Positions 3,325 to 51,372 of a stretch of 54,041 bases of DNA are shown in pieces (the stretch's first letter is position 1; each line of letters opens with the position of its first letter). Under the pieces are notes generated by a model. The model was not told where the DNA came from. It saw nothing but the letters and a program-made list of their open reading frames with translations, and did not search any database. This DNA comes from a virus: IMG/VR virus record IMGVR_UViG_3300025168_000117, one strand, 5' to 3'. The position numbers were made by a program, and so were the translations under genes.

Positions 3325-4005
3325 TCAATACAAATTCAATCCTGTTGGTCTAATTCTTATTGAAACATTTGGTCCTTCTTCTGCAGAAGCAAATCCAAAT
3401 GCTCTTTCATAAAGCTCATATAATCCTGCAGCACGATCTGGTGCAAATTTAAGAGCTAATTTTGCAGCTAATCCTGCACACATACAATCATTCCACCTAT
3501 AAGGAACATCTGCATCTTGATTAGATTTTGTCACATCTTGAACTTGAAAAACTCCATAATATTGTAATGTGTCGACAGCATTGTCTGGAACTGGCCAAAG
3601 TTTAATTTTCGGAGTATATTGACGATCCATCATATATTGAGAAGCAACTCCACTAGTTGTTTTAGTAGGAAGTGAATTGTAATCCTGAATTGCGACTCTA
3701 TTAATTTCTTGGTCAGTGCTCTCTGTTCCAGAAACTCTTCTGTAAACTATACTAACAATATCAACAAGACCATGATCCAAAGTATATTCAATTTGGTCTT
3801 TAACTAAAGTTACAGTTTTTAATTCAACTCTCCAATAGTTCCAACCACGATTAGCCCATTCAGAAAAAAGCAGATTCAAACTTCTCCTTGCTGAATCTGC
3901 TTTATACCCTGTTTGTGTTTGAGGATCTATTCCACATCTCTCTAGAGCTTCAGAAATAATTTCCTCAATATCTGGTCTATAAGTTACTGTTCCTGATGTT
4001 GCCAC
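3325..4005 (-). CDS. Putative head-tail adaptor / tail-proximal structural protein (226 aa)
   Basis: Track ORF. The pattern (EEIISEALERCGIDP...LNLLFSEWANRGWNYWR...LWPVPD...DVPYRW...GLAAKLALKFAPDR) resembles podovirus adaptor-type proteins by eye; not searched. Confidence 0.4.
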   Translation of the reverse strand: MATSGTVTYRPDIEEIISEALERCGIDPQTQTGYKADSARRSLNLLFSEWANRGWNYWRVELKTVTLVKDQIEYTLDHGLVDIVSIVYRRVSGTESTDQEINRVAIQDYNSLPTKTTSGVASQYMMDRQYTPKIKLWPVPDNAVDTLQYYGVFQVQDVTKSNQDADVPYRWNDCMCAGLAAKLALKFAPDRAAGLYELYERAFGFASAEEGPNVSIRIRPTGLNLY

Positions 4006-4427
4006 TAATACACCTTTTTCATTCTTAATGCTATCTGATAAGAGTCTGAAACTGCACCAGCACCTGTTGTTGTAAATTTTATAACACCAGTAGGACCAGT
4101 TCCTCCAGAACTTATAGTTGATGGCAATCCACCAAAAAGACTATAATCTTGGTAACTACCATTAACATCAGTAAGATTTAATAAAATAGGTTTTGCTCCA
4201 GATGCAACACCTGCTTCAATTTCAACAGTCATCCCTGCAATAACCCACCATGCTTCTACAATTCTTAATGCAGTGCAAGTTGTCCCATTTGAACTTTTTG
4301 CTAGATTTGCTGGTGTAACTTTCACAACACTTGCTTCATTACCAGTATCAACATATTGATAGCTAAAAGTCATGACAACTTCGTTTACATTATCGTCTAT
4401 TGTGCTAATTTTAACTAGATCTGCCAT
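4005..4427 (-). CDS. Virion-module protein of unknown function (140 aa)
   Basis: Track ORF with beta-rich composition. Its stop is coupled to the start of the downstream ORF at 4005. Confidence 0.7.
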   Translation of the reverse strand: MADLVKISTIDDNVNEVVMTFSYQYVDTGNEASVVKVTPANLAKSSNGTTCTALRIVEAWWVIAGMTVEIEAGVASGAKPILLNLTDVNGSYQDYSLFGGLPSTISSGGTGPTGVIKFTTTGAGAVSDSYQIALRMKKVY

Positions 4428-4448
4428 TAACTTTACTCCCTAATTAAA

Positions 4449-5021
4449 TTATACTGTTGACCATGCAGCTGCACCTGTTAAAGCTGCGAAATCTTTAGCA
4501 AGGTCAAAATTAACATTCCATAAACCTGCTTCTGTGCAACTGAAATATATATAAGAGCCGATACTTACATGATTCGTTACTACATTTGCTGGAGTAATTG
4601 TCAATGTATTGTTTAATGCTACTGATGTAACGAAAGTTAATTTATTTGCTGCTCTAGATTCAAAAACAGAACCTGTTCTAAAGACATCACTTCCTGATGT
4701 TTTAAATTTTAATGTAGCTGTTCCACCTGTAGTGTCAACAGCTTGTGCATAAACAACCCAAGTATTAACTAAAGTTTTATCATCGCTAACTGATGGAAGA
4801 GTTACTGTACATGCAGCTGCACCTGTAAAATCAACAGCATTAACTGTATTACGAGTAAAACTAATATTTGTTGCTGTTGCAACTGATGCTGCTGTTAGTC
4901 CTGTAAAATCAGGTTTTGTTCCTAGGTAATTTTTAGTTTCTATTCCTGTTGTTGGATTTGTAGTCAAAGTTATAAACCCATGTTGGGATCTAACTGGACC
5001 ATTAAAAGTAGTATTCGCCAT
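4449..5021 (-). CDS. Structural-module protein of unknown role (190 aa), start moved to MANTTF
   Basis: Track ORF 4449..5039. The ATG at 5021 is preceded by AGAAGGAA, 7 nt upstream, matching the genome-wide SD. The composition is Thr/Ala/Val/Asn-rich beta type. The gene has its own upstream promoter-like site and a structured leader. Confidence 0.65.
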   Translation of the reverse strand: MANTTFNGPVRSQHGFITLTTNPTTGIETKNYLGTKPDFTGLTAASVATATNISFTRNTVNAVDFTGAAACTVTLPSVSDDKTLVNTWVVYAQAVDTTGGTATLKFKTSGSDVFRTGSVFESRAANKLTFVTSVALNNTLTITPANVVTNHVSIGSYIYFSCTEAGLWNVNFDLAKDFAALTGAAAWSTV

Positions 5022-7635: not shown

Positions 7636-8544
7636 CTATGTTTGACCTTCAGAGCCAAAAATTCCACGCCAGTCAGTCCATCCGAATGAATAACGTTCGC
7701 GAACTTTATAGCGAACATTACCTGTTTCGAAATCACCTTCCATACCTTTTCTTAAAGGTGTACGAGTGAACATTTTTAAACCATCAGGAACATCAGTTTT
7801 AACAAACCACTGGTCAGAATCAGTTAAACGACGCATCACATGATATCCATCAGGTAAATAACCACCTTTGTTGATAGCATTGATATCGTTGTCAGCTGTT
7901 CCAACTCTGCCTGTAGATTCTAACAGCCTTTGTGCTTGGAATACATAAGCAGTTGGAATGACAAGAGTTGTGCCTTGTGCTGCGACACGCAAGCCACGAT
8001 TGTCTTTCATATCTGCAATAGCAATTAAAACTGATTCTAAAGAAGTTTCAGTTAAATCTGCTGCTGTTGCTAATGTATTACTTTGGTCACCATTATTAGT
8101 TGGATGGTCAGTAGCTAAAAGTGTTTTACCATCTCCACCTGTGTAACCTGCTGTTGTTGCAAAGTTTAAGATATTAGCAGCTTTTATTTCTTTAGTAGAA
8201 TTTATTGAACGTGCTAATGCCTTTGTGTAACGTGAAGCAAGAGAACCATATTGACCATCTTCTTCTGCTTCTTCAGTAATTGCGAAAGCTAATGCAATTG
8301 TTTGGTGCTGATAACGTGCTGTCCATTGTTGACTTGCATTATCATAAGAAATTGCTGAACCTTCGTTTTTCACTGGTGCGTTACCAAAACCTTCTAAAAG
8401 AACATCTTCTTCGAAAGCTTTGTTAGAAGAATTAGAAGCAAAAACTGCTTTCCATTCTTCTGGATATTGTGCGTACTCAAGACCGAAAAGAGCATTTAGT
8501 CCAGGCTCGAGCAGTTTCGCAAATTGGGCTCTATGTAGTGACAT
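7636..8544 (-). CDS. Major capsid protein (302 aa)
   Basis: Track ORF. The N-terminal FAKLLEPGLNALFGLEYAQYPEEWKAVF...AFEEDV...GFGNAPVKNEG and overall pattern resemble HK97-fold major head subunits of the Mu gpT-like type (by eye). It sits downstream of a scaffold-like gene and is followed by a strong hairpin. Confidence 0.75.
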   Translation of the reverse strand: MSLHRAQFAKLLEPGLNALFGLEYAQYPEEWKAVFASNSSNKAFEEDVLLEGFGNAPVKNEGSAISYDNASQQWTARYQHQTIALAFAITEEAEEDGQYGSLASRYTKALARSINSTKEIKAANILNFATTAGYTGGDGKTLLATDHPTNNGDQSNTLATAADLTETSLESVLIAIADMKDNRGLRVAAQGTTLVIPTAYVFQAQRLLESTGRVGTADNDINAINKGGYLPDGYHVMRRLTDSDQWFVKTDVPDGLKMFTRTPLRKGMEGDFETGNVRYKVRERYSFGWTDWRGIFGSEGQT

Positions 8545-10542: not shown

Positions 10543-10956
10543 CTATGGTATATAATTTTGAATGTTGCAACCTTCTGGCACAACAGATGTTATTTCGTCA
10601 TCATTAAGAAGAAGCAATTTGACTCCACCAATAACTAGCTTTTGTCCTGCATATTTTCCAAATGTAACGTGGTCACCTATATTTGCCCAACGACCATAAT
10701 GCCATTGACGACCAGATTCTCGTTCGCACCAAGCTAATGGTCCGTGGTCAAGTATTACACCATGGGCAGTTAAGTATTCTTCATTTTCTTGAGTTTGTTC
10801 AGGAAGATATAAACCACTCGCTGTTTTCTTCATAGGAACTTGTGGTTTAACCAAAACTCTCCAACCTGTCGGTTTTGGTAAATGTTTTGGATTTTGTATT
10901 TCAGGGTCATTGCCCCAACTTTCTTTTACTTCATGGAGATGAGCCATGTTATTCAT
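10543..10956 (-). CDS. GroES / Cpn10-like co-chaperonin (137 aa)
   Basis: It aligns by eye to GroES. WRVLVKPQVPMKKTASGLYLPEQ matches [23 protein letters not shown], and IGDHVTFGKYAGQKLVIGGVKLLLLNDDEITSVV matches [35 protein letters not shown]. It has an extra N-terminal ~30 aa and an insertion in the roof region. Confidence 0.7.
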   Translation of the reverse strand: MNNMAHLHEVKESWGNDPEIQNPKHLPKPTGWRVLVKPQVPMKKTASGLYLPEQTQENEEYLTAHGVILDHGPLAWCERESGRQWHYGRWANIGDHVTFGKYAGQKLVIGGVKLLLLNDDEITSVVPEGCNIQNYIP

Positions 10957-11234: not shown

Positions 11235-11867
11235 TTACTGACCAGCTAGTGGATTGTTCAAAGCTCTTGTTAACATATCTCTTAATCTGTCTTCTAATTC
11301 TTTTAATTTTGCATCTAATGCTTCATTGCGCCTATTGGCATCAGACTCTATCGCTGTTCGCTTAGAATCAAACCTATCCTCTGCATGCTGTATCAAAGTT
11401 CTCATATCATTTTCAGAAGTTCTAGTGCTACCACGAGTCTCTTGATTTAAATCTCTACTTCTTTTATCAACAGAAGATATCTGGTCTAAAATGTTATTAA
11501 TATCCGACCGAACATCATTTTTCATCTGCCTAACATCATCTTGTGCAGAGGTTATTAACTGTAATGCTGTAGATATTTCTGATTGCAAAATTTGATTCAT
11601 ATTAGATATTTCACTCTCTAATTTGATTCCTAAGCTATCAATTTTTTCATTGGTAACTTTTATTGTTGCATTAAAATCACCTAATTGTTTTTGAAATCCA
11701 CTAAGATCTGGTGCTGTATAACTAGAAATTTGGTCTTCCATTGCAACCCACCTAGCATAGCCTTCAAATCCTGCCCATACAGAACCACCAATTGCTCCTA
11801 ACAATGGGAAGATGAAAAGTAATTTACCACCACGGAATTTTATTCCTTTGTATTCTACTTCACTCAT
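11235..11867 (-). CDS. Membrane-anchored coiled-coil protein (210 aa)
   Basis: It has one N-terminal TM segment (LLFIFPLLGAIGGSVWAGF). This is followed by ~150 aa of heptad-like charged helix (SEISNMNQILQSEISTALQL...). It is the last gene of the envelope/lysis cluster. Confidence 0.65.
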   Translation of the reverse strand: MSEVEYKGIKFRGGKLLFIFPLLGAIGGSVWAGFEGYARWVAMEDQISSYTAPDLSGFQKQLGDFNATIKVTNEKIDSLGIKLESEISNMNQILQSEISTALQLITSAQDDVRQMKNDVRSDINNILDQISSVDKRSRDLNQETRGSTRTSENDMRTLIQHAEDRFDSKRTAIESDANRRNEALDAKLKELEDRLRDMLTRALNNPLAGQ

Positions 11868-13401
11868 ATTGTGCTCCTATCATTTTTTCAAATACTAAAC
11901 TATCTCGGACTCCAAAATAATTACCTAATGGATCTTGTAGCATAGTTTCTGCATAAATATCTTTTGATTCATACCATGTTGGTTGTACTTGTGTAGGGAT
12001 TTGCTGATAAGTTTTGATATCTGCACCTAATGCATTTACTAAAGCTAATGTAGTTAATTGAGCTACGGCATCATATTGGCTGTCGAAACTTTGCATGATT
12101 TCTTTAGCTTTTTCTTGTTTAGCTTCTTGTTTCTTAGTTGGTTTGTCCGCAACCTTTACCTCTTTGACCTCTTCTTTCTCCTTAGATTCTTCCTTTGCAA
12201 CTTCCTTCGGTTCTGGTTTAGATTCTTTTTTAACATCTTCTTTAACCTCTTCTTTTATTTCAGAAATCTCTGTTTCTTCCGCAACCTTTTCTGTCTCAGG
12301 TTCTTCTACTGGCTCTCCTGGAGCATCTACGGAGGTTGAAATCTCTTCAGATTCTTGATTTTCAGCTATTTCAACACTTTCTTCTGGTTTTGATTGAACT
12401 TCTACTGGTTCTGGCTCTGCTGGTTCTGGCTCTGGTTGAGGAGCTTCAATAACTTCTGGTTGCTCTTGTATGTCTGGCATAGAAAGCACTTCTTGAATAT
12501 CTTCTACCACTGTTTCCATAGTTACAACTTCTGCTTCAAAAGAATTCGTTTCAACAATAGGAGCATATTCTACTGTTTGCTCAAACACAACTGTTTCTGT
12601 AGGGACAATATCTATGGAAACAATATCATCAGGAACACCAACATCGTAATTATCCATTTCTTCATAAGAAGGTTCTGGTGTTGTATCTTCATAATCATAA
12701 GTATCGGTTGATGCTACTGTTTCATTAAGCATAACTTGTGTTTCTATATACTGTAAGTAAGTAGTAACAACTGTAGAAATAACATTGTACTGCACATCTA
12801 ATTGAACATTGTCAAAATAATAATTGTTTTTGCCACCTACAGATACGAACAGCTTATCTAAACCACCAGAATAATCATAGTTCCCTGCGTAGTCTGTAGT
12901 GCCAGACGCTAAATCAGTTTTGTCTGTCCACAACAGTGTATTGTTATTGTATCCTTTAAGTTCAAAATACAACTCTGTATTGTTTTGAGAATGCCAGCCA
13001 TCTAAACTCCAGTTCAAAGCACCACCATCTTCTATGTGAAATTGTGCTAAACTTATGTTTTGCTGAAAAGTTGTCAATGTACTAGAAGTTCCTTTAGCGC
13101 ATTTTCCTGTTCCTCCAACTTGAGAAGGACAAGTAACCATACTAGCTGAACCGATCCCACCCCAATCTTGGTCCATATCCCCTTCGTATCTCGTTGCTAC
13201 GACACCTGTATCTTTATGTAATATATCACCAGTTGTTTTATTTTCAATAGTAACTGTTGTTTCTGTAACTTCTTGAACATCACCTTGCTCTTCAATTACA
13301 GTTGTAGTTGTAGTTCCTGCATCTTGCATCTGTCCAAATGTATCAAAGGAGTAGGAGCAAGAACAACAAACCACCAATACCAAGACCAGTAGCTTCTTCA
13401 T
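11860..13401 (-). CDS. Secreted protein with an acidic Pro/Glu-rich then Lys/Glu-rich linker (513 aa)
   Basis: It has an N-terminal signal-like MKKLLVLVLVVCCSCS with Cys residues but no canonical lipobox. The central region reads PQPEPEPAEPEPVEV...KPEPKEVAKEESKEKEEVKEVKVADKPTKK. Its SD (AAGGAGA) and ATG are embedded in the last 20 codons of the upstream ORF. Confidence 0.7.
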   Translation of the reverse strand: MKKLLVLVLVVCCSCSYSFDTFGQMQDAGTTTTTVIEEQGDVQEVTETTVTIENKTTGDILHKDTGVVATRYEGDMDQDWGGIGSASMVTCPSQVGGTGKCAKGTSSTLTTFQQNISLAQFHIEDGGALNWSLDGWHSQNNTELYFELKGYNNNTLLWTDKTDLASGTTDYAGNYDYSGGLDKLFVSVGGKNNYYFDNVQLDVQYNVISTVVTTYLQYIETQVMLNETVASTDTYDYEDTTPEPSYEEMDNYDVGVPDDIVSIDIVPTETVVFEQTVEYAPIVETNSFEAEVVTMETVVEDIQEVLSMPDIQEQPEVIEAPQPEPEPAEPEPVEVQSKPEESVEIAENQESEEISTSVDAPGEPVEEPETEKVAEETEISEIKEEVKEDVKKESKPEPKEVAKEESKEKEEVKEVKVADKPTKKQEAKQEKAKEIMQSFDSQYDAVAQLTTLALVNALGADIKTYQQIPTQVQPTWYESKDIYAETMLQDPLGNYFGVRDSLVFEKMIGAQYE

Positions 13402-13906
13402 CTGTTATTATCTCCTTATCTACAACATTATCTTTTTTCCATTGCTCATAGTCAGGTCTTTTTTCAGGATTTTCTGCCCATGCTGTTGCAGCTTCAAGAC
13501 CTATTTTTCCCATGTATGGACAAGGTGTTCCTGCCATTTCCATTGCTTGAAATACTCTTGGGTCTTGGCATAACATAGCTACAGCACCAACTTTCATACC
13601 CATACGGAATAATCTCGTTGACAATTTCATACGTTCACAGTTCATGTCTCTAATAGCTGTGCCACCAGCTAAACCAAATATTTGTGTTTGAATTGCTCCA
13701 GAAGCAGCAAAACTACAGACATCTTGATTATTGATGACAACACTTGGGGCAGATGCTGTAGATGGAGTTCTATCTACTGTAGTTGTACCACTTACTGTCG
13801 AGCTAGTGCTTGAAACAGTATTACTTTGAGCTTTTGCTACACTGCACCAAGTCATCATAGACAGTATAAAGATAACAATTAATATTGCCCAAAACTTTGC
13901 ACTCAT
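13343..13906 (-). CDS. Cys-containing envelope protein with signal peptide and C-terminal membrane anchor (187 aa)
   Basis: The signal peptide is MSAKFWAILIVIFILSMMTWCSVAKA. A Ser/Thr-rich linker is followed by a domain containing several Cys. The C-terminus is hydrophobic (GLGIGGLLFLLLLL). Confidence 0.7.
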   Translation of the reverse strand: MSAKFWAILIVIFILSMMTWCSVAKAQSNTVSSTSSTVSGTTTVDRTPSTASAPSVVINNQDVCSFAASGAIQTQIFGLAGGTAIRDMNCERMKLSTRLFRMGMKVGAVAMLCQDPRVFQAMEMAGTPCPYMGKIGLEAATAWAENPEKRPDYEQWKKDNVVDKEIITDEEATGLGIGGLLFLLLLL

Positions 13907-14385
13907 TAGTCAATCCACTCTCCTGTTAGCATTATTTGAGAAAGTCTATCAGCTCTAGATTTAACTTGCTTTGCCCAAGCACTGTCTAACATCTGGTTAG
14001 AAGCTTCATCCCAATTTTCTTCTTGAATAGCTTTAAACATATTTGGCCATTTGCTAGGATTGAAACGAGTCATACCCATATTAAATAACATATCTAATAG
14101 TACGCATTTTCTTATGCTATCTAGATTATTGTAAACATCCCAATTTTGAGCTTCTCTATCTATTCGAGCAACATCTCCCATTAATAAGAAATTTGCTTCT
14201 TCTTCATTTATACCTAAACCATCTGCAGCTATATTCCTGCCGACCCCAAGAGTTGGGTGTCCTATAAGAGTGTCCCCAGCTTTTAATTCTTTGCCGTTGG
14301 CATCATCATAAACTTTAAGCTTTAATCCTTCATGAAGAGTTAGCATTTTTAAAAGTTTAAATTTATCAGAATCTATGTTATCCAT
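13906..14385 (-). CDS. T4-type lysozyme (glycoside hydrolase family 24) endolysin
   Basis: It aligns by eye to T4 lysozyme. HEGLKLKVYDDANG matches DEGLRLKIYKDTEG, including the catalytic Glu/Asp. TLGVGR matches TIGIGH, DSIRKCVLLDMLFNMG matches DAVRRAAINMVFQMG, and the C-terminal W...A...R...TG.W pattern is present. Confidence 0.9.
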   Translation of the reverse strand: MDNIDSDKFKLLKMLTLHEGLKLKVYDDANGKELKAGDTLIGHPTLGVGRNIAADGLGINEEEANFLLMGDVARIDREAQNWDVYNNLDSIRKCVLLDMLFNMGMTRFNPSKWPNMFKAIQEENWDEASNQMLDSAWAKQVKSRADRLSQIMLTGEWID

Positions 14386-14732
14386 GGCGTTTTAGTTCCT
14401 CCATAATATGGTCTAGCATGCCCTTCTTCTACCATTTTATCACAAATGTTATACCCATCAACTATTGGCTCACCAAGTATCCTGCCAAATTTTCCTTTTG
14501 CATCTTTGTGAGTTATTATAGTAAATCTCTTCGGAAGTAATTCTTTAAGGCGAGCTTTGCTCTCGAGACCAAGCTTCTTTTCTTCCAAGTTTCTAGTTCG
14601 ACTTTCAGGTGTGTTGATTCCAAGTAGACGGACTCTTTCTTTTTTGAGCCAGACCTTAAAGCCAAGATCAATGCTAACATCTATAGTATCTCCATCAATA
14701 ACTCTAATAAGCTCACATCTGTATTCATGCAT
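14373..14732 (-). CDS. Staphylococcal-nuclease (thermonuclease)-like nuclease (119 aa)
   Basis: VIDGDTIDV...VRLLGINTPES...GKFGRILG resembles the SNase motifs IDGDTVKL / RLLLVDTPE / YGRGLAY. Confidence 0.75.
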   Translation of the reverse strand: MHEYRCELIRVIDGDTIDVSIDLGFKVWLKKERVRLLGINTPESRTRNLEEKKLGLESKARLKELLPKRFTIITHKDAKGKFGRILGEPIVDGYNICDKMVEEGHARPYYGGTKTPWIT

Positions 14733-14924
14733 CTATACCATCCCACCTGATTGTGCCCTCGCAAGCACTGTTAATGTTTCTCCGAAAGACTTATCAAGTT
14801 CCTTTGCAGCCATGGCAAATAAACGAGGAGGAATTTCAGATCCTTTAAAACCTTTTCTATTAAGAAATTTCTTTGCTGCTCTAATCTCTGCTGCAGCTAC
14901 TTTTTTAATTTTTGCTCTTGCCAT
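14733..14924 (-). CDS. Small basic protein (63 aa from the ATG; the track uses a TTG at 14948)
   Basis: Track ORF 14733..14948. The ATG at 14924 gives MARAKIKKVAAAEIRAAKKFLNRKG.... The start is uncertain. Confidence 0.5.
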   Translation of the reverse strand: MARAKIKKVAAAEIRAAKKFLNRKGFKGSEIPPRLFAMAAKELDKSFGETLTVLARAQSGGMV

Positions 14925-15066
14925 TGCTATGAACCTTTTGTATTTCAAATGAAGCTTTTTTAACTGCTCCTGAATGAGGTTTATAAGAACCTTTCATTAA
15001 TTTAAATCCTTTTCCTGCTTTCATCCAGTGGAAACCTTTTGGAGCTGATACTGTTTTATTTGCCAT
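14905..15066 (-). CDS. Tiny basic protein (53 aa), not in the ORF track
   Basis: Hand translation gives MANKTVSAPKGFHWMKAGKGFKLMKGSYKPHSGAVKKASFEIQKVHSNGKSKN. The ATG at 15064..15066 overlaps the end of the upstream ORF by 11 nt. The stop is TAA at 14905..14907. Confidence 0.5.
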   Translation of the reverse strand: MANKTVSAPKGFHWMKAGKGFKLMKGSYKPHSGAVKKASFEIQKVHSNGKSKN

Positions 15067-15232
15067 TCTTTTTAACCTTTTTCTTTTTTTGTTTTTGCTT
15101 TTTCGCTATTGCTTTAAATGTTCCTTTAGCTGGTGCTCCTTTTGCACCTTTTTTTCGCATCTTTTCTCCAGAACCTTCTTTGATTCTTTTTCTTTTTGCG
15201 TGAATGTTTGCATACAATCCTTTTTTAGCCAT
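15056..15232 (-). CDS. Tiny basic protein (58 aa), start moved to MAKKGLYANIHAKRKR
   Basis: Track ORF 15056..15292. The ATG at 15232 lies 4 nt after the upstream stop. The protein is Lys-rich and ends KKQKQKKKKVKKNGK. Confidence 0.6.
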   Translation of the reverse strand: MAKKGLYANIHAKRKRIKEGSGEKMRKKGAKGAPAKGTFKAIAKKQKQKKKKVKKNGK

Positions 15233-15236
15233 TATA

Positions 15237-15494
15237 TCACCATGCTTTGCAAGACCAATATCTTGCTTTTGTTTTTGGTCCAGGATTATCACAGTTGTGG
15301 CGAGATCGGAAATTGCTCCTGCGACCTTTTTGATTTTTCTTAATCCTCATGTTAGGATCTCCGAATGTAACTCTTTTAACAGAATCGCCATCTCTAACAT
15401 AAACAACTGATTTCTTTCTACCATAACTTGTTTCACCTTTAGATATCCTTCTAGGATTATTAAGTGTTACATTTTTCCCTTGATATTCAGCCAT
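15237..15494 (-). CDS. Small basic protein (85 aa)
   Basis: Track ORF reading MAEYQGKNVTLNNPRRISKG...VKRVTFGDPNMRIKKNQKGRRSNFRSRHNCDNPGPKTKARYWSCKAW. It is joined by TAATG to the upstream micro-ORF. Confidence 0.7.
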   Translation of the reverse strand: MAEYQGKNVTLNNPRRISKGETSYGRKKSVVYVRDGDSVKRVTFGDPNMRIKKNQKGRRSNFRSRHNCDNPGPKTKARYWSCKAW

Positions 15495-15634
15495 TATTTT
15501 TTCTTCTTTTTCTTCTTTGGTTTATAACCAGAAGCATATATTGCACGACCTTGAGCATCTGCTTGTTTTTTAGTCTTATAAACTTTGCCAGAACTTCCCC
15601 AGCGATAGCCACCTTTGACTTTTTTCGTTGGCAT
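15494..15634 (-). CDS. Tiny basic protein (46 aa), not in the ORF track
   Basis: Hand translation gives MPTKKVKGGYRWGSSGKVYKTKKQADAQGRAIYASGYKPKKKKKKK. The ATG at 15632..15634 directly follows the TAG of the upstream micro-ORF. The stop overlaps the next start as TAATG. Confidence 0.55.
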   Translation of the reverse strand: MPTKKVKGGYRWGSSGKVYKTKKQADAQGRAIYASGYKPKKKKKKK

Positions 15635-15811
15635 CTATTTTTTCTTTTTGGTTGTTTTCTTCTTTTTTAATCCATAAGAACCTTTAGGTTTGCGAGTAGC
15701 TTTTGCGACTTTACGACGACCAGCTTCTGACATTTTCTTTTTAGATTTCTTGCCACGAGTCATTCCAAGTTGTTCGTCTTTCCTATCATTGTATCCTTGT
15801 TTCTTTTTCAT
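15635..15811 (-). CDS. Tiny basic protein (58 aa), not in the ORF track
   Basis: Hand translation, codon by codon, gives MKKKQGYNDRKDEQLGMTRGKKSKKKMSEAGRRKVAKATRKPKGSYGLKKKKTTKKKK. A strong SD is present (AAAGGAGGAAAAG-ATG). Confidence 0.6.
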   Translation of the reverse strand: MKKKQGYNDRKDEQLGMTRGKKSKKKMSEAGRRKVAKATRKPKGSYGLKKKKTTKKKK

Positions 15812-15872: not shown

Positions 15873-16460
15873 TTATTCAGTCTTGTACAAATCATTCTTT
15901 ATTAAATATTGCCTAACTTCACCAGGAGTTAAATTGTAATTATTTTTAAGATCCATAATAACATCATAATAATCTTCTGATATAAGAGAATCTGCATCTC
16001 CTGATTTAAAATATCTTTCTAAATTTTCACTATTCCCTTTGAAAACTGTTTTAACTGCATCTTCAGCTTCAAACTCTGCTAATCCTTCTGCAGCTTTTTG
16101 TATCTCATCAGCTGTTTCATCCATAACTTCTATCTCTTTATATTTTATACCTCTAGCTCCTAATTCTTCAAATGGGTCTTCCATAATTCTGTTAGCTATA
16201 TTGTCTATAGTTTTAGAATAAATAGAACTCAAAGACTCTATATTAAATATATTCTCTGGTAATTTTGGTATGGCTTTAGCAGCAGGGACAAGGACATCAG
16301 AGACTTTGCCAGCAAGACTTAAATCTCCGAGAGTGCTTAATGCACCTCGCATCATATCTCTTCTATTCATCTCAGGAAGTTTACCCAAAACTCCTTGTGT
16401 AACTTCCTCTGTTGCTACTGGGAGAGCTCCTGGTTTAATTTTAATAGGAAGCTTTGGCAT
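15873..16460 (-). CDS. Leader-sharing paralogue 3 (195 aa)
   Basis: It starts MPKLPIKIKPGALPVATEEVTQGVLGKLPEMNRRDMMRGALSTLGDLSLAGKV. The C-terminal ~135 aa are acidic and unrelated to the other two copies. Confidence 0.8.
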   Translation of the reverse strand: MPKLPIKIKPGALPVATEEVTQGVLGKLPEMNRRDMMRGALSTLGDLSLAGKVSDVLVPAAKAIPKLPENIFNIESLSSIYSKTIDNIANRIMEDPFEELGARGIKYKEIEVMDETADEIQKAAEGLAEFEAEDAVKTVFKGNSENLERYFKSGDADSLISEDYYDVIMDLKNNYNLTPGEVRQYLIKNDLYKTE

Positions 16461-16461
16461 T

Positions 16462-17073
16462 TTATTTTGAATTCAATATTTTTTGAGTCTCTGTCCAGAT
16501 CTCTTGATAACCACCATCAGCTTGAGCAGAGTCTCCTATGAAATTAGCTATGTCATCGCTAGAAGCATCAGGAAACTCAGATCTAATATCTTTAGAAAAA
16601 TTATTAGGAACTTTGCCTTTTTCTCCTTTTCTAAAATAATAATATGCTTCTTGTAGCTCTGGGATCTGTAAATCCTTTGGATGTAATTCTATGGCTTCGT
16701 CAAGAAATTCTTGAAAAGGCAAATCAGGATCATCAGCTAATCTTTTAATACGATCTCCAAACTCTCCTTTTTTAGCCTGTTTGAAAAAGAATTTATTTAC
16801 AATATCACTAAATAATGGAAGTTTTAATTGTGTTCCTGTATCTATAAATTCTCCTATATTAAGAATTTTTTTAGCAACTGGTGCTGGTTTAACTATTTTA
16901 GATATTTGATTTAGTGCATTTGTTTCCATGGCTGTATTAGCAATAGTACCTAGAGCACCTCTTAAAAATTCTCTTCTATCAACTTGAGGAAGTTTGTCTA
17001 GAACTCCTTTGGTTACTTCTTCTGTTGCTACTGGGAGAGCACCTGGTTTAATTTTAATAGGGAGCTTTGGCAT
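16462..17073 (-). CDS. Leader-sharing paralogue 2 (203 aa)
   Basis: It starts MPKLPIKIKPGALPVATEEVTKGVLDKLPQVDRREFLRGALGTIANTAM. The C-terminal domain is unique. Confidence 0.8.
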   Translation of the reverse strand: MPKLPIKIKPGALPVATEEVTKGVLDKLPQVDRREFLRGALGTIANTAMETNALNQISKIVKPAPVAKKILNIGEFIDTGTQLKLPLFSDIVNKFFFKQAKKGEFGDRIKRLADDPDLPFQEFLDEAIELHPKDLQIPELQEAYYYFRKGEKGKVPNNFSKDIRSEFPDASSDDIANFIGDSAQADGGYQEIWTETQKILNSK

Positions 17074-17684
17074 TAATCTGGATCTAATATGAATTTCCTA
17101 ATTTCAGGAAGAGTCATTTTCTTATCGCTAATTAAATATTTTAATGCTTCTTGAATGTCTGTATCAAGTTCTTCGAATTGTTTCGCACCATCTAAAAATT
17201 CTTCTAACTCTCCATCGAAAAAACCTTTAAAGTTGTCTTGAAACATTACATCATCATCTGCTAACTCTTTTAATAATTTTTCGTCTTCAAGAAGTTTTTC
17301 TCGAGCATTGCCATAATTTATATTCTTTGCTTTCAATTCAGATTTTGTAAATGCATTGGTTAATATGTCCCATGCCTCTTCATCGAAAAGATTTTCACCA
17401 GCATAATCATCGTAAGAATCATATTTCAATTGCCTCATAGAAGGAAGATTAAAAAAATCTGTTACATCTTCTATTTTTGGAACTGCTTTCTTGACAAGAG
17501 GTGCAATTGCATCAACAACTTTGCCAGTAAGACTTACATCTCCTAGAGTGCCAAGTGTTCCTCGCATTACATCTCTTCTGTTCATCTCAGGAAGTTTATC
17601 TAAAACTCCTTTGGTTACTTGGTCTGTTGCTTCTGTTGTTACAGGAAGTGCTCCTGGTTTAATTTTAATAGGGAGCTTGGGCAT
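17073..17684 (-). CDS. Leader-sharing paralogue 1 (203 aa)
   Basis: It starts MPKLPIKIKPGALPVTTEATDQVTKGVLDKLPEMNRRDVMRGTLGTLGDVSLTGKV. The C-terminal domain is unique and acidic. Its stop overlaps the start of paralogue 2 (TAATG). Confidence 0.8.
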   Translation of the reverse strand: MPKLPIKIKPGALPVTTEATDQVTKGVLDKLPEMNRRDVMRGTLGTLGDVSLTGKVVDAIAPLVKKAVPKIEDVTDFFNLPSMRQLKYDSYDDYAGENLFDEEAWDILTNAFTKSELKAKNINYGNAREKLLEDEKLLKELADDDVMFQDNFKGFFDGELEEFLDGAKQFEELDTDIQEALKYLISDKKMTLPEIRKFILDPD

Positions 17685-17686
17685 GA

Positions 17687-17968
17687 CTAATAGTTTTCGC
17701 CATTACCCAGAAGTTTATCCATCATGTGAGCTGCATCATTGCCATGAAGCTTGATAACTTTCATATCACCATCTTCTACAATTTCACCTTCATCATCATC
17801 ATGAGATTCTTCCATCATGCCTTCGTCTTCTAAATAAGATTGCTGGCAAAGCAAAAGGAATTTTTTAATTTGTTCGTCATTCAATTCAATCTCATTAGCA
17901 GAGAAACCCATCTTCGCTTCAAACATTGCATGGATATCTAACCCACTGTCAGTCATTTCATTTTCCAC
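17687..17968 (-). CDS. Small very acidic protein (93 aa), GTG start
   Basis: Track ORF. The GTG at 17966..17968 lies 7 nt after AAGGAG. The sequence includes EDEGMMEESHDDDEGEIVEDGD. Confidence 0.6.
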   Translation of the reverse strand: MENEMTDSGLDIHAMFEAKMGFSANEIELNDEQIKKFLLLCQQSYLEDEGMMEESHDDDEGEIVEDGDMKVIKLHGNDAAHMMDKLLGNGENY

Positions 17969-18134
17969 TTTTCTTCTCCTTCATGAAAAAGCCAAAGACT
18001 CCTGCAGCACCACAAGCAATCATAACTATGCTTTGCCATAAATCATTTGGTATTATTACACCCACCATTGCCAACACACCTGTCAAAGCTGCATAAGATG
18101 ATGGTTCTTTAAATCTATTAATTAGTTCTTGCAT
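17958..18134 (-). CDS. Two-TM small membrane protein (58 aa), not in the ORF track; holin candidate
   Basis: Hand translation gives MQELINRFKEPSSYAALTGVLAMVGVIIPNDLWQSIVMIACGAAGVFGFFMKEKKSGK. A GGGAGA SD lies 8 nt upstream, inside the end of the preceding gene. There are two hydrophobic segments and a charged C-terminus. Confidence 0.55.
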   Translation of the reverse strand: MQELINRFKEPSSYAALTGVLAMVGVIIPNDLWQSIVMIACGAAGVFGFFMKEKKSGK

Positions 18135-18136
18135 TA

Positions 18137-18730
18137 TTATTCTCCCATTTTTCTTCTTAAGTTACCTAAAAATCCTTCTACACTACTAGGAAGTTCGCCA
18201 ATTGCACCAGTTGGTCGTGCAGAATCTTTCTGGTATTGTCTGAATTCCATATCTGTTACAGGACCAGCAATTGGTCGCATTGGCATTGTTGGAGCCATTT
18301 CATATGAGTCTCTTTCCATTCTTTGCATTTCTTCGTCTGTGAGAGAGCCAGAACCAACTGGACGCATTAATGGAGCCATTGGTGCTGCTAATCCTGGCTC
18401 TTGAATTTCTCTTGGTGGCATATTGTTTTCATTATCCATAGCCATAAATGCTCTTCCTTCTTCTTCAGTAATTTCAGAAAGAGGTTTATTTAAATATAGT
18501 TGCATCCTTTCAACTTGGGTATATCTTTCCATATTGTCATCAGACTTTGGCAAAGCTCCTTGAGGATTATTCTTAATGCTTTCGCTAAAAGTTGGATCTC
18601 CTGCTGTGTTGTTGCTTGCTGTTTGTATCATCTGAAAAACTTCTTCAGGATTTTGCCCTGCTGCAGTTCCTTCTGCAAGTTTAGATAATGTCTCTTGATA
18701 TCTTTTTTGAAATTGGTCTTCATAATTCAT
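18137..18730 (-). CDS. Portal-adjacent protein with duplicated MRP.G..TD.EF motif (197 aa)
   Basis: Track ORF overlapping the portal stop by 11 nt. It contains APLMRPVGSGSLTDEEM and MPMRPIAGPVTDMEFRQYQK. The first motif is shared nearly nucleotide-for-nucleotide with the ORF at 43027..44556. Confidence 0.75.
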   Translation of the reverse strand: MNYEDQFQKRYQETLSKLAEGTAAGQNPEEVFQMIQTASNNTAGDPTFSESIKNNPQGALPKSDDNMERYTQVERMQLYLNKPLSEITEEEGRAFMAMDNENNMPPREIQEPGLAAPMAPLMRPVGSGSLTDEEMQRMERDSYEMAPTMPMRPIAGPVTDMEFRQYQKDSARPTGAIGELPSSVEGFLGNLRRKMGE

Positions 18731-21197
18731 TTTTCATTCCTTTCATTTGTATCTCTGCAACAGCTTTCTGTTTTGCTATTTCTATGTCTGCATTTAATTT
18801 TGCAAGTTTAGCTTCTAATTCTGCTTGAGTTTTCGCAATAGTTTTATCTATATCCATTTTAGTTTTAACTTGGTCTTGTTGAATGCTTGCTTGAGCTTTT
18901 GCTTGGTCTATTTGCATATCAGATTTAGCTCTTGCTTGGTCTGCTTGAATTTCAGCTTTGGTTCTTGCCATTACAGATTCAGCTTCAATTTTCGCAAGTT
19001 GCTGTGCCATGTTCATAGGATTATTTGCACCAGCACCACCGAGTTTATCTAACCCTCCAATTGATTGCATCTTAGGAGATTGTTGAACAACTTGTGCTGC
19101 TCTTTCAGCAATCATGTTATTAAGGTCTGGTGATATACTTTCAAATTTAAATCTTGGATCTCTAATGTTAGGCATTTTAGGGAATTCAACTCCTGTTGCT
19201 TTTTGCATTCTTATCCTATAAAGCATCGCTACATGTTCACCAATGTGAGCAATCATCATAGGACCAATAGTTTTTTGAGCTATTGGATTTCCTCCCAAGC
19301 TTGGATCTTGTAAGAATTGCATGTGAACTGCAATATGAGCTTCGTGGTTCTGGTCTATAAAAGCTTTGATTGGTTTGCCAAGTAATGCAGAAACATTCTC
19401 ATCAACAGGGTCAAGACTTGGTGCTTCCTCTGGTTTCTTTAAGATTTGGTCAACATCTGGAACTCGAATTGCTTCGTACATTCTTTTGTAAGCTTCATAC
19501 ATATCATGAAGTTGAGGTGCAGATTGTGCGAGTTGTAGTATTGCTTGAGCTTGGGCAATCCTTTGTGTAGAACTAAAGATGCTTGGATCACTAACAGGAA
19601 TAACATCAACTCTTTCATCAAAGTCTTTAGCATAAATAATTTGGCTTGCACCAGAAAGAGCGAAATTTATTTTCTCTGGTAATGTAACTGCATTTAGATG
19701 CATAATAAGTTTGAATTCTTGCCCTTGTGCATAATGCAATCTTTTGTGAATAGCTGAGAATATTTTAGAGCCTTGCTCTAACATAGCGATAGTTGTTCCT
19801 ACAGGAGCATTTGGATTTGCTTCCCCAACATTTAAATCTGCAACAGCAGCATATCTTCTTCCTGCATCAACAATAAATCCTAGTAATTGGAACAATGTGC
19901 TTGATGGTTCTTTAAATGGTAATGGCATAATAGATTTAGAGATGTCATCGGTTGATGCATCTAAGTCTACATATTCTCCAGGATTAACTTCTAGTTCTCC
20001 CCCAGGAACACGACCTTTTAATTTAAAGCCACCTTGCATATTTGCAAAAGCTGCGGAGTCTAAAAGAGCTCTTAGTGAACCTGTTGCTGCTTTACCTAAA
20101 CCACCGATGATGTGATAAAGACCGAAACCATAAAAACCTAAACCAGGAAGGAACTTATATTCAACAAACCAAACAAGTTTCTTTTTATCTTCGTCTTCTT
20201 CTTGCCAATTTCTTCTTATAGATACAATCTTTTGACTTTGATAATCTATTGTTATTACATAAGGCAGAGCAACAAAGTCTTCGTCTTCTGGATCCCCACC
20301 ATCTATTTCATTAAAGATAATATTAGTGTGCATCTCTAAAAGAGTCATAATTTCATCATTACCTTCAGAAGCAGAAGGATTAATTCCTTCTATCTCATAG
20401 GTAACATCTTCATTTGGATCTCCATCTCCTGAATATCTTTCAGCTGGTAAATAGTATCCTGCTTGAACAAATTTATTATATTCGTTTCTTGCCATCTCTA
20501 TAACATGAGTGTATCTTGGTGATGTTAAAAGATCGGTGCTTTCTGGAGCGACGACGAAATTTTCTGCTTTAACAAAGCGACTTGTTATTCTTTTCATTGC
20601 TGGGTCGAACCAAACCTTTTTAAAAGTTTGCCCAACTAAAGGTAAATGGAATAACATCTGGTCAACATCAGGGAAATACTCTGGCATCTCCTCAAGGAGT
20701 TGATAATTCATATAATCTTTAACTCGTATAGCTTGTTCTTGGAGTTCTTCATCAGCTTCACCAATAGAAACTGTTTTAACTGGACCACCAGCAGGAAACA
20801 ATTCTGCTATTGCTCTTGCTTGAAATTGTGTTGCTGCTTCTGCAATCATAGGATGGACAACTTGACTTAATCCTCTAGTTGCTCTGTCTGCTTCTGCATC
20901 ATTAAGACCACCTTCGGAATCTAAAGTTTTTAAACCATCTTTATATTTTTCTTCCCAACCAGACCTAGCTTGACGATCTGTTTCGTAATAATTCAACAAT
21001 AATGTTGCATGTTCATTAATTTCTTTTTGGTCTAATATCTCAGCTAAATTAGAATCAAAGTTTGATGATGGTTCTTCATTATCCTCTTTCTCTCCAATGA
21101 GAACATTATCAGAATCTATCTCTTCAATGATAAGATCGTCAGAAGGTGCACCCTCAGCAAAAGGAATTACTTTATCATCACTTTTTAATTTTGCCAT
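18720..21197 (-). CDS. Portal protein (825 aa)
   Basis: This large ORF lies immediately downstream of, and overlaps, the terminase large subunit gene. It has an acidic N-terminus. The ~100-aa C-terminal extension is a repetitive coiled coil (QADQARAKSDMQIDQAKAQASIQQDQVKTKMDIDKTIAKTQAELEAKLAKL). The assignment rests mainly on position and size. Confidence 0.7.
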   Translation of the reverse strand: MAKLKSDDKVIPFAEGAPSDDLIIEEIDSDNVLIGEKEDNEEPSSNFDSNLAEILDQKEINEHATLLLNYYETDRQARSGWEEKYKDGLKTLDSEGGLNDAEADRATRGLSQVVHPMIAEAATQFQARAIAELFPAGGPVKTVSIGEADEELQEQAIRVKDYMNYQLLEEMPEYFPDVDQMLFHLPLVGQTFKKVWFDPAMKRITSRFVKAENFVVAPESTDLLTSPRYTHVIEMARNEYNKFVQAGYYLPAERYSGDGDPNEDVTYEIEGINPSASEGNDEIMTLLEMHTNIIFNEIDGGDPEDEDFVALPYVITIDYQSQKIVSIRRNWQEEDEDKKKLVWFVEYKFLPGLGFYGFGLYHIIGGLGKAATGSLRALLDSAAFANMQGGFKLKGRVPGGELEVNPGEYVDLDASTDDISKSIMPLPFKEPSSTLFQLLGFIVDAGRRYAAVADLNVGEANPNAPVGTTIAMLEQGSKIFSAIHKRLHYAQGQEFKLIMHLNAVTLPEKINFALSGASQIIYAKDFDERVDVIPVSDPSIFSSTQRIAQAQAILQLAQSAPQLHDMYEAYKRMYEAIRVPDVDQILKKPEEAPSLDPVDENVSALLGKPIKAFIDQNHEAHIAVHMQFLQDPSLGGNPIAQKTIGPMMIAHIGEHVAMLYRIRMQKATGVEFPKMPNIRDPRFKFESISPDLNNMIAERAAQVVQQSPKMQSIGGLDKLGGAGANNPMNMAQQLAKIEAESVMARTKAEIQADQARAKSDMQIDQAKAQASIQQDQVKTKMDIDKTIAKTQAELEAKLAKLNADIEIAKQKAVAEIQMKGMKNEL

Positions 21198-21203
21198 GCT
21201 TCC

Positions 21204-22712
21204 TTATCCATACAATGGTACTTTAGGTTGTGATTCATTATACTCTTCTTCAAAATCTTCGGAATGGGTAAGAAACCATTGCTTCCTTAATCTTAACCAT
21301 GCCTGCGTGCATGTATCTACTATATCGTCATTTTCTCCTGCTGGAAAGGCAGAACATATATTTATTACATCTTTTGCCCATTTCTTCCCTCCAGGATACC
21401 ATATACGACCATCTTCTAAAAGAGCAGATGCAGCATGGGCTCTTGCTTCTTTGTCTCTATCTGGAGAATAAGCAAGCACAGGAACTCCAGCCATCCTCAA
21501 GTCTTGCAGAAGAGATTGTCCAGAAGCTTTCTTTTCAATCAAAACTGCATCTGGTTCGTAAGTATTATATGCATCTTGTGCTTCTCTTCTTAAATCAGGA
21601 TAACTGACTCTATCAAACCAACAATCGATAATGATTGCATTCCATTGATTGTTCTTCTGGAAAACTCCCCATGTTGTTCTTGCAGAGTAACTACTTTTTT
21701 CTTTTGTAGAATAAGCTGTATCCCAAGATTGAATGACATAAGTTATATTAGGAAGGTCTTCTTCCTCCCATTCTCGCCACCACTCTTCTTTTAAGATAGT
21801 GCCACCTTTTGCCATTGGTCTTTGTTGCAGCTGTCCAGCAGAAGCATAAACTCCTAAAGAGTTTTCTAATTCGGAAAGAGTATCATCACCAATTCTTTCT
21901 GGCCAAAGCAGATCTCCTTCTTTCTTCCTTGGGTCTTCAAAGCCAATAGAAGAATAAGATATTGAAGGATGCTCAATCTCGTATCTTGCTGGCAGACACA
22001 AATGATTCCAATTATTACTATTCGCTAATATGTGTCCTGTTAAATCTTTCTCATGCACTCTTTGCATTATAATTATAAATGCTCCAGTCTTCGGATCATT
22101 AAGTCTGGTTTGCATAGCTTGGTCCCACCAATCAAGAACTCCTTCTCTTACAGTGGCAGATTCTGCTTCCCTAACATTATGTGGGTCATCAATAACTATT
22201 ATGTCACCACCTTCACCAGTTAAAGCTCCATCAACAGAGGTAGCTATTCGCATTCCTGTTTTATCATTCTCAAATCTTTGCTTTTGGTTCTGGTCACCAG
22301 TTAATTGGAAGACATGACCAAAGTGCTCTTGATACCATTTACTAGCAATCAACCTTCTGCACTTTACTGAATCCCGAACAGAAAGAGAACCTGCATAAGA
22401 TGCAAACAGAAATCTTTTTGAAGGATTATCTATCCATGCCCAAGCAGGAAGTGCAACTGCAGCTGTTATAGACTTCATGTGCCTAGGTGGTATATTAATA
22501 ATCAATCTTCTGATGTCACCATTAACAACTGCTTGTAAGTGTTCGCAAACTGCATCTATGTGCCAGTTGTCGTAAAAATTACGTCCTGGTTCCATCGTCT
22601 CCCAAGAGCTCTTGATAAATTCCTTGAGACTCCGACGACTCTTCTCTGCTCGTATCTGGTTCAAGGACAGCGTGCTCAAGTACTCTTTCAATTGTTGCGA
22701 GGTCATTATCAT
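21204..22712 (-). CDS. terL: Terminase large subunit
   Basis: SLKEFIKSSWETMEPGRNFYDNWHIDAVCEHLQAV...LIINIPPRHMKSI is a Walker A-like P-loop. IIVIDDPH is Walker B. The C-terminal nuclease-type region contains DTAYS...DDIVDTCTQAW. Confidence 0.9.
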   Translation of the reverse strand: MIMTSQQLKEYLSTLSLNQIRAEKSRRSLKEFIKSSWETMEPGRNFYDNWHIDAVCEHLQAVVNGDIRRLIINIPPRHMKSITAAVALPAWAWIDNPSKRFLFASYAGSLSVRDSVKCRRLIASKWYQEHFGHVFQLTGDQNQKQRFENDKTGMRIATSVDGALTGEGGDIIVIDDPHNVREAESATVREGVLDWWDQAMQTRLNDPKTGAFIIIMQRVHEKDLTGHILANSNNWNHLCLPARYEIEHPSISYSSIGFEDPRKKEGDLLWPERIGDDTLSELENSLGVYASAGQLQQRPMAKGGTILKEEWWREWEEEDLPNITYVIQSWDTAYSTKEKSSYSARTTWGVFQKNNQWNAIIIDCWFDRVSYPDLRREAQDAYNTYEPDAVLIEKKASGQSLLQDLRMAGVPVLAYSPDRDKEARAHAASALLEDGRIWYPGGKKWAKDVINICSAFPAGENDDIVDTCTQAWLRLRKQWFLTHSEDFEEEYNESQPKVPLYG

Positions 22713-45623: not shown

Positions 45624-45626
45624 TAG

Positions 45627-50073: not shown

Positions 50074-50075
50074 TA

Positions 50076-50719: not shown

Positions 50720-50722
50720 TGA

Positions 50723-51358: not shown

Positions 51359-51372
51359 TTTATTTTCTCCTT

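Follow-up and report, generated by a model that had tools for sequence, protein, structure and literature searches.

A common N-terminal leader on three tandem genes beside the portal of a marine podophage: a possible address for packaged effectors

Why should a phage carry, close to its portal gene, three adjacent genes that begin alike and end differently? The question is raised by the viral DNA IMGVR_UViG_3300025168_000117 (54,041 nucleotides, called the window in what follows), in which genes A, B and C lie in tandem on the minus strand between positions 15,873 and 17,684. Each encodes a small protein comprising an N-terminal leader and a C-terminal part termed the cargo. The original prediction was that they form an array of effectors that are targeted to the virion and injected, in the manner of the internal proteins of phage T4. 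The genes are members of a phage-only, lineage-restricted family of modular proteins, in which the leader is maintained by purifying selection and the cargo is exchangeable. That leader-tagged proteins are loaded into the virion and then injected as effectors is a possible function, to which we assign a probability of roughly 40%.

A leader under selection and its exchangeable cargo

The array had been described as three abutting or overlapping minus-strand open reading frames, with which the coordinates and lengths listed here agree exactly. The stop codon of A and the start codon of B overlap by 1 nucleotide (nt) in the sequence TAATG, B and C are separated by 1 nt, and A starts 2 nt after a gene of 93 amino acids (aa).

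17073..17684, minus strand: gene A, open reading frame of 203 aa, leader and acidic helical cargo of class A; orthologues of 75-100% identity on metagenomic contigs
17481..17684, minus strand: leader of A, residues 1-68 (MPKLPIKIKPGALPVTTEATDQVTKGVLDKLPEMNRRDVMRGTLGTLGDVSLTGKVVDAIAPLVKKAV), from alignments; basic and predicted to be disordered
17073..17480, minus strand: cargo of A, residues 69-203, all-alpha and acidic, with the conserved module ..IQEALKYLISDKKMTLPEIRKFILDPD at its end
16462..17073, minus strand: gene B, 203 aa, leader and cargo of class B; orthologues P0023, P0025, P0026, L008 and L009
16879..17073, minus strand: leader of B, residues 1-65, with the arginine-pair (RR) segment most like a twin-arginine translocation (Tat) signal (DRREFLRGALGTIANTAM)
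16462..16878, minus strand: cargo of B, residues 66-203, without similarity to the cargo of A or C
15873..16460, minus strand: gene C, open reading frame of 195 aa, leader and cargo of class C
16266..16460, minus strand: leader of C, residues 1-65, from alignments
15873..16265, minus strand: cargo of C, residues 66-195, acidic, with the C-terminal module common to A, S and F

The first 15 residues of A, B and C are invariant (MPKLPIKIKPGALPV), and in the alignment the similarity of the proteins reaches approximately residue 65, bearing out the claim of one conserved leader on three genes. The DNA contains a direct repeat of 130 nt in three copies, at spacings of 613 and 602 nt. Over the first 45 nt the identity is 89% for the pairs A/B and A/C and 96% for B/C, with all the differences being synonymous changes at third positions. 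For the leader as a whole the paralogues of the window differ by 0.10-0.14 nonsynonymous (dN) and 0.56-0.78 synonymous (dS) substitutions per site, giving dN/dS of ~0.17. The high dS indicates that the copies of the leader are old, and have been kept through selection on the protein. Leader similarity is thus the product of purifying selection at the protein level, and not of recent gene conversion or near-identity of the DNA; the near-identical first ~45 nt noted in the original prediction are found, but they are not what maintains the leader. The leader carries a net charge of +4.5 in A and of +2.5 to +5.5 across the three proteins. Residues 1-72 of A are disordered in the AlphaFold2 model calculated from a 13-sequence alignment, with a predicted local distance difference test score (pLDDT) below 50.

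Tandem genes with a 130-nt direct repeat might be nothing other than young duplicates, their 5′ likeness arising from recent duplication or gene conversion and their leader being without address function. The disparity between dS and dN in the leader speaks against this, and recent gene conversion is rejected as the source of the 5′ similarity on the dS values. Moreover, the same leader is retained across divergent genomes on non-homologous cargos, while homologous cargos are carried by different leaders. This explanation is therefore very improbable.

The cargos had been thought mutually unrelated. This holds for B, which has no detectable similarity to A and C outside the leader, but not for A and C, whose C-terminal parts give a weak whole-length alignment (BLASTP E 0.004) and have a module near the C-terminus in common (..MTLPEIRKFILDPD in A and ..LTPGEVRQYLIKND in C). 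The module recurs in the cargo classes S, D and F of relatives; in all five classes it has the form ..(N)Y.(M/L)(S/T)..E(I/V)..(Y/F)L.K(N)D and extends over ~45 residues. In a cargo-only profile comparison it connects C with S (E 2e-4) and A with S (E 7e-4). C also aligns by BLASTP over its full length with the relative L026_6064 (E 1e-6), and with class F (E 2e-5). B is homologous to the longer B2 proteins of 301-334 aa (hhalign 99%, BLASTP 1e-36 to 1e-40), the C-terminal extension of which has a faint match to contact-dependent inhibition (CDI) toxin nucleases (E 0.02).

The profile and structure checks proposed for these domains succeeded in part. Residues 73-203 of A are modelled by AlphaFold2 as a confident all-helical domain of eight helices with pLDDT ~90, yet a Foldseek comparison of the class-A model with the PDB and BFVD gave nothing below E 0.6. 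The model of B is of low confidence (pLDDT 48) and too poor for use. No library family was matched: A, B and C have no meaningful match and no known domain in Pfam, PHROGs, NCBIfam or PADLOC, and sequence and profile searches of the PDB returned no match. The cargos are strongly acidic, with a net charge of -19 for A, -8 to -19 in the window and -22 in class D. Between orthologues dN/dS of the cargo is 0.23-0.78 overall; it is 0.25-0.33 for gene A and 0.6-0.8 for the cargo of B.

At the same locus in relatives, between the acidic 93-aa neighbour gene and a group of tiny basic genes, the arrays are A-B-C (window), B2-C, A3-C, D-C, A-E, S-A2, S-A2-B and B-A2. There are thus at least six cargo classes in at least eight configurations, with two or three genes in every complete array; the genome 023Pt_psg01 has no array. 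The turnover of copy number and cargo that had been anticipated is therefore seen among the relatives, with no single invariant copy. C is most often the conserved last member, standing behind B2, A3 or D in L004, L005, L014, L015 and L016.

The exchange of cassettes by recombination is evident from sharp breakpoints at the junction of leader and cargo. Gene B of the window and its orthologue in L008 have a dS of 2.1 in the leader and 0.13 in the cargo, and the identity of their DNA is 78% in nt 1-105, drops to 31-56% in nt 106-180 and reaches 98% from about nt 195, placing a recombination breakpoint at approximately nt 185-195. The same gene is 90-98% identical to B2 of L004 solely over nt 76-205, corresponding to the RR half of the leader. 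A comparison of gene A with A3 of L014 gives the opposite pattern to that of the B orthologues, with leader and C-terminal module 80-96% identical and the middle just 20-58%. These differing identities indicate that the proteins are mosaics composed of three or more exchangeable segments, and that one breakpoint falls where leader and cargo meet. Together, configurations and breakpoints bear out the proposal of a fixed leader joined to exchangeable cargo. In a Tara scaffold (L006), a class-B leader passes into a class-C leader across a stretch of N at ~7160-7175. The repetition of the leader probably causes gaps or wrong joins when metagenomes are assembled here, and array lengths taken from short contigs may consequently be underestimates.

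The family has a narrow distribution. A word-indexed search of 5.8 billion proteins yielded 29 clusters, all metagenomic, and an exhaustive hidden Markov model (HMM) search of 1.84 billion representatives with the leader profile gave ~10 true family clusters; two eukaryotic low-complexity repeat proteins among the matches of that profile were discarded. Neither the leader of the window (type N1, below) nor the F-class cargo was found by tblastn in 50,697 deposited phage genomes, and a scan of 185,579 prokaryotic genomes yielded no member of the family.

Five leader types and a terminal core motif

The system is more general than the three genes of the window, for five leader types are present in related marine podophages. 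To reach the more distant members, 21 further loci were fetched with the acidic 93-aa neighbour gene as an anchor.

N1, MPKLPIKIKPGALP.., in the window and close relatives
N2, MADKVTGVLNLLKGL.., at more distant metagenomic loci
N3, MVKITPGALLDLLKQTP.., at more distant metagenomic loci
N4, MAGK(G/S)K..(R)GAL..L.D, at more distant metagenomic loci
N5, MANP(V/I)KGAL.., in gp66, gp68 and gp72 of CRP-902

Homologous cargos are found behind different types. B2 (E 1e-108 to 1e-126), D (8e-25) and A (6e-62) each follow both N1 and N2, E follows N1 and N3 (~1e-15), F follows N2, N3 and N4 (1e-36 to 1e-57), and G follows N2 and an N1-like leader (1e-80). The element common to all leaders is (K/R)-x-G-(A/V)-L-x-x-(L/I), present in one to three copies per leader, with its hydrophobic residues in a helical, amphipathic spacing as judged by eye. 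A motif scan locates it in the window as follows.

16942..17007, minus strand: core motifs G(A/V)L-x-x-h in the leader of B, GVLDKL (residues 23-28) and GALGTI (residues 39-44)
16329-16394, minus strand: equivalent core motifs in C
17592-17609, minus strand: equivalent core motif in A

The scan found four other sites in the window, one in a transmembrane (TM) helix of a 58-aa protein and three that are non-terminal, in unrelated proteins. Across 33 array proteins the motif is confined to the termini, with a density per 100 aa of 1.85 in the first 90 residues, 0.78 in the last 35 residues and 0.02 in the interior (one in 4,585 residues). The N-terminal counts are inflated through common ancestry; the C-terminal occurrences are largely independent, and belong to several cargo classes that are unrelated to one another (..TAGALGNLVEEE, ..EGALKNLVED and ..GTGALGPLADDP are examples). 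A transplantable docking peptide would be expected to function in this way, from either terminus.

Proteins of cultured phages have comparable ends. In CRP-902 (L001) gp66, gp68 and gp72, encoded at 1150-1686, 1945-2691 and 3550-4860, begin MANP(V/I)K(G/D)(A/L)(L/I/F)..., and in CRP-901 (L002) gp68 (806-2176) begins MGNPLKDFIGDLG.. and ends ..GLGALNTIPEQDRT. The terminal-motif system is thus present in cultured phage, making a laboratory test possible.

The arginine pair of the leader suggests a quite different role, as a Tat signal or signal anchor (RR-x-F-L-(K/R)-G-A) directing the domains to the periplasm late in infection for superinfection exclusion, receptor masking or control of lysis. 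In B and some relatives RR-x-F-L-(K/R) is indeed followed by a Gly/Ala-rich stretch; the segment of B contains DRREFLR, close to S/T-R-R-x-F-L-K, while A (NRRDVMR) and C (NRRDMMR) conform partially. In A and C, however, Asp and Lys follow the pair, so that the hydrophobic region would be charged, and the best 12-residue hydropathy of this stretch is 0.7-1.4, compared with 1.35-1.75 for four Escherichia coli Tat signals; the hydropathy is low in B as well. Three leader lineages (N1, N2 and some N4) preserve the pair, but it is lacking from E, S, F, the ADP-ribosyltransferase (ART)-like cargo described below, N3, N5 and P0030 (NLKELIPSGAL), all of which retain the GAL motif. The pair also lies 33-37 residues into the protein, preceded by a conserved module that would be superfluous for a Tat signal. 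L026_6064 and L026_6642 carry the canonical-looking SRRTFIKGAAVTPIFAGGALAGI and SRRQFIKQAPVATAGGAGALAGLG, and the former, the full-length relative of C, has a weak match to the Pfam TAT_signal family (PF10518, E 0.03); the window proteins match neither PF10518 nor the NCBIfam Tat models. The neighbourhood is rich in envelope proteins (the two-TM 58-aa protein, a lysozyme and two signal-peptide proteins), which fits export. The GAL motif is found at C-termini too, where a Tat signal cannot work, and export by this route is unlikely.

For one cargo there is a hint of function. L030_6796, a 210-aa protein of a relative with an N4 leader and a C-terminal GAL motif, whose cargo is absent from the window, matches the Pfam family ART-PolyVal (PF18760) with E 4.2e-5 over positions 6-135 of the 140-position profile; its 24.8 bits fall short of the gathering score, 31.2. 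It also matches phrog_21376, a profile of 1,664 positions, with E 9e-7. The ART-PolyVal domain clade was described from polyvalent proteins of phages and plasmids that are predicted to be delivered with DNA (PMC5512222).

Class E (L007 6606-7409, L017 58-822, L025 5226-6368 and 30 related proteins within P0034-P0068) has the invariant residues Y-x-F-R-Q-G, S-F-S and E-E-E-(V/I)-L. These recall the R-S-E triad of ADP-ribosyltransferases, which is a lead and not a result. The assignment of class E as an ADP-ribosyltransferase was set aside, as Pfam, PDB profiles, tblastn and the search of 5.8 billion proteins gave only family members.

Genomic setting of the array

The window resembles a complete genome of podovirus type with ~35% G+C content. 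Its DNA for TerL and portal is ~65% identical to that of the roseophages CRP-901 and CRP-902, and the portal is also related to that of 023Pt_psg01, a genome of the HTVC023P type. Pelagiphages of this type are reported to be among the most abundant ocean phages (PMC10149686). The principal genes around the array are these.

21204-22712, minus strand: TerS and TerL
18720..21197, minus strand: portal (phrog_1216, E 2.7e-39)
18137..18730, minus strand: 197-aa gene overlapping the portal stop codon, with the conserved tail ..GAIGELPSSVEGFLGNLRRKMGE
17958-18134, minus strand: 58-aa protein with two hydrophobic segments (two-TM) and the basic tail ..FMKEKKSGK, holin-like in appearance
17687..17968, minus strand: acidic 93-aa gene, conserved, marking the array's upstream boundary in all relatives
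14733-15811, minus strand: five or six tiny open reading frames of 53-85 aa, extremely rich in lysine and arginine, directly downstream of C
14373-14732, minus strand: SNase
13906-14385, minus strand: lysozyme
11860-13401, minus strand: 513-aa protein with a lipoprotein-like signal (MKKLLVLVLVVCCSCS) and a very acidic, low-complexity C-terminal half rich in Pro, Glu and Lys, overlapping the preceding signal-peptide gene; it has no family match
10543-10956, minus strand: GroES co-chaperonin (PF00166, E 1e-10), between the lysis genes and the coat
7636-8544, minus strand: HK97-type coat protein (PF25209)
40635-53958, minus strand: tail and other structural genes, to which the string wraps round
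45627-46067, minus strand: GNAT acetyltransferase (PF13508, E 2e-7), amid the tail and structural genes

The placement of the array just downstream of the portal stands, as it begins three genes (~1 kb) past the portal on the same strand. It lies in an uninterrupted minus-strand string with TerL and portal in which stop and start codons overlap or abut. Scans for promoters and terminators at the array gave no signal above shuffled expectation, and the three genes thus appear to be part of the late gene string. After the lysozyme the minus strand continues with two signal-peptide proteins, a coiled-coil protein, GroES, three unknown genes and the coat. At both ends of the window the structural genes of the minus strand continue past the last letter, consistent with a complete, circularly permuted genome. 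Both the GC skew and the coding strand switch twice, at ~25000 and ~40600, flanking a plus-strand block (25.4-40.6 kb) that separates two late blocks of the minus strand and presumably holds replication genes.

The holin-like 58-aa gene, together with the SNase, lysozyme and signal-peptide genes 2-5 kb downstream, indicates that lysis genes are interleaved with the array. The tiny basic open reading frames, exemplified by MPV(R/K)KVKGGYRWG.., keep their order in relatives and partly in CRP-902, and one is an 85-aa phrog_7595 protein of the kind annotated as 'HVA1 family' in CRP-901 and CRP-902. Their products could be DNA-associated internal proteins.

The 197-aa protein beside the portal is a candidate core assembly protein, with a tail resembling the leader motifs. 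In the N4 lineage the tail of the portal-adjacent protein (..DMGALGNLPEDINDLSSFLRNLQQK) is similar to the leader SDLGALRGGSSLPEDINNLPSFKE of class F (phmmer E 0.005, database of 1,057 open reading frames). If the portal-adjacent protein is scaffold-like, its coat- or portal-binding tail may be what the leaders imitate. A second motif, APLMRPVGSGS(L/T)(T/S)D.E(F/M)..YQK, is common to the 197-aa protein, where it occurs twice (phmmer conditional E 2e-8), and to a 509-aa tail or structural protein (43027-44556, minus strand). Structural proteins may be linked through it, as a further docking motif.

A late position close to the portal would suit structural or assembly accessories (decoration proteins, head fibres or auxiliary scaffolds), anchored by the leader and displaying variable surface domains, much as podovirus tailspikes are held by conserved N-terminal anchors. 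Phage receptor-binding proteins are as a rule built in this manner, with a constant N-terminal anchor and an exchangeable C-terminal domain, which counts in favour. The cargos, however, are small acidic helical bundles with no structural match in PHROGs or Pfam, and one cargo class matches an enzyme family (ART-PolyVal). Copy number varies between two and three and 023Pt_psg01 dispenses with the array, which argues against an essential structural role. We consider structural accessories improbable.

The mixed surroundings of the array would also suit late accessory proteins that stay unpackaged in the cytoplasm, the leader docking on some other hub (a host chaperonin, protease or polymerase, a membrane, or another phage complex) and the variable domains tuning specificity. 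The genes lie in a mixed accessory island and not in a pure head module, and the phage encodes its own GroES. Modularity, selection and disorder point to a common binding function without naming the partner. Yet expression together with a late gene such as the portal is poor timing for anti-defence or takeover unless the products travel on into the next cell, and cargo of the ART-PolyVal type is typical of delivered proteins (PMC5512222). Leader types track the phage lineage, which may point to a docking partner encoded by the phage. A cytoplasmic hub deserves to be taken seriously, while being on balance somewhat unlikely.

Known delivery systems and a possible docking tag

The arrangement resembles in its logic four known systems, namely T4 internal proteins, P1 DarB, MuF toxins and the cargo peptides of encapsulins, and is homologous to none of them. 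In T4 the internal proteins IPI, IPII and IPIII and the protein Alt also bear a short conserved N-terminal address on diverse late proteins (PMC9026906, PMC3012670), from a locus that is polymorphic between related phages as it is here. Alt is an ADP-ribosyltransferase, and a relative of the window has an ART-like cargo. The capsid-targeting sequence (CTS) of T4, in contrast, has ~10 residues and is cut at L/I-x-E by the gp21 prohead protease; the present leader of ~65 residues is repeat-like and six times longer. With LPE in the leaders of A and C, and LPQ in B and many relatives, it has no conserved L/I-x-E cleavage motif. T4 internal proteins are basic and belong to a T4-like genome, while the cargos here are acidic and the genome is of podovirus type. 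For A, B and C neither PHROGs (assumed to cover the T4 internal proteins) nor Pfam gave a relevant match to IPI, IPII, IPIII or the CTS, and the structural and late genes, when scanned with Pfam and PHROGs, revealed no T4-like prohead protease, though remote homologues may escape such scans. Processing in the style of T4 is thus unlikely and, with neither similarity nor protease nor conserved cleavage site, membership in a system of the T4 type is unsupported. What endures of the comparison is the fixed leader, the swappable cargo, the turnover and the late locus; the acidic cargo and the partial homology of A and C do not fit it. As an analogy, the proposal that the proteins work like T4 internal proteins remains a reasonable hypothesis.

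In phage P1 an N-terminal signal of <30 residues suffices for the loading of DarB into the head, and the cargo protects the incoming DNA (PMC9024508). The Dar proteins differ in having no consensus N-terminus and in the size of DarB (250 kDa), P1 has a prohead protease, and there is no homology with the present family. MuF toxins and polyvalent proteins combine a conserved, head-associated N-terminal module with variable C-terminal effectors, ART domains included (PMC5576092, PMC5512222). MuF genes reside in the packaging module beside the portal, and the position of the array is similar. The MuF module is folded, unlike the leader, which is predicted to be disordered and bears motifs, and no window protein matches the MuF domain (PF04233) in Pfam at E <= 1. 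MuF and polyvalent proteins are single giant multidomain proteins, in contrast to the several small single-cargo genes in tandem here, and MuF phages are temperate phages of Firmicutes whereas the present phages are lytic and marine. No immunity-like gene is seen, and the window cargos are without a recognisable toxin domain.

Encapsulin targeting peptides are short conserved motifs in disordered terminal extensions of 50-120 residues, N- or C-terminal and sometimes repeated, that bring unrelated cargos into a container with an HK97-fold shell (PMC8346489). At the sequence level the same feature is encountered here, namely a short motif in a terminal extension predicted to be disordered, common to non-homologous cargos and located at either end. 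The encapsulin sequences TVGSL and GPTGLGT are only loosely like G-(A/V)-L-x-x-L, and the shell in this case is a true DNA-packaging phage capsid, to which binding is putative.

How, then, might tagged proteins come to be packaged and injected? The terminal G-(A/V)-L-x-x-L motif would be a docking (address) peptide that binds a conserved head-assembly component of the phage, whether the inner surface of the coat, the portal or a scaffold-like protein, and it may imitate the C-terminal end of the conserved assembly protein next to the portal. Cargo proteins made late would enter the procapsid without proteolytic processing, would reach the next host cell together with the DNA, and their variable domains would act there as early effectors in anti-defence or host takeover. 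Recombination at the junction of tag and cargo would give each phage a private, rapidly changing set of effectors.

Packaging and injection are favoured by the late gene string containing the portal, the modularity, the leader under selection and predicted to be disordered, the interchangeable leader types, the confinement of the motif to the termini, the related motif at the end of the portal-adjacent protein, the narrow distribution of the family and the ART-PolyVal match in a relative. Several observations weigh on the other side. There is no cultured member of the family with a published virion proteome, and published work on phages of the HTVC023P and CRP-901 types contains neither virion proteomics nor mention of the array genes. 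To the lack of a detected prohead protease is added the strong acidity of the cargos (-8 to -22), which is unfavourable beside packed DNA and contrasts with the basic character of the internal proteins of T4. The genes sit amid genes of lysis or envelope type (the two-TM 58-aa protein, SNase, lysozyme and signal-peptide proteins) and not in a clean block of head genes, and the leader includes the conserved twin-arginine motif that resembles a Tat signal. Lastly, the likeness of leader and portal-adjacent tail is weak (E 0.005 in a small database), and the ART-PolyVal match falls short of the Pfam threshold and is not from the window.

A broader formulation is that a family of abundant marine podophages possesses a protease-independent, encapsulin-like means of loading by a terminal amphipathic G-(A/V)-L-x-x-L peptide, often multivalent and set in a disordered extension at either end, for fast-changing injected effectors that include ADP-ribosyltransferases. 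This we put forward tentatively, as rather doubtful.

Should the leader prove to be a packaging address, small podoviruses would possess a general means of loading variable effectors that can be recognised from sequence, and it would be a natural plug-and-play tag for protein delivery in tailed phages outside T4 and P1. Having no relatives in Pfam, PHROGs or the PDB, the family would then form a catalogue of candidate anti-defence and host-takeover proteins of HTVC023P-related phages, and the leader could be transplanted to other proteins as a tag for their delivery. Cultured CRP-902, with gp66, gp68 and gp72, provides an experimental handle on the system. Even if packaging proves to be wrong, a terminal motif found across five leader types and many cargos constitutes a new short linear motif system of phages.

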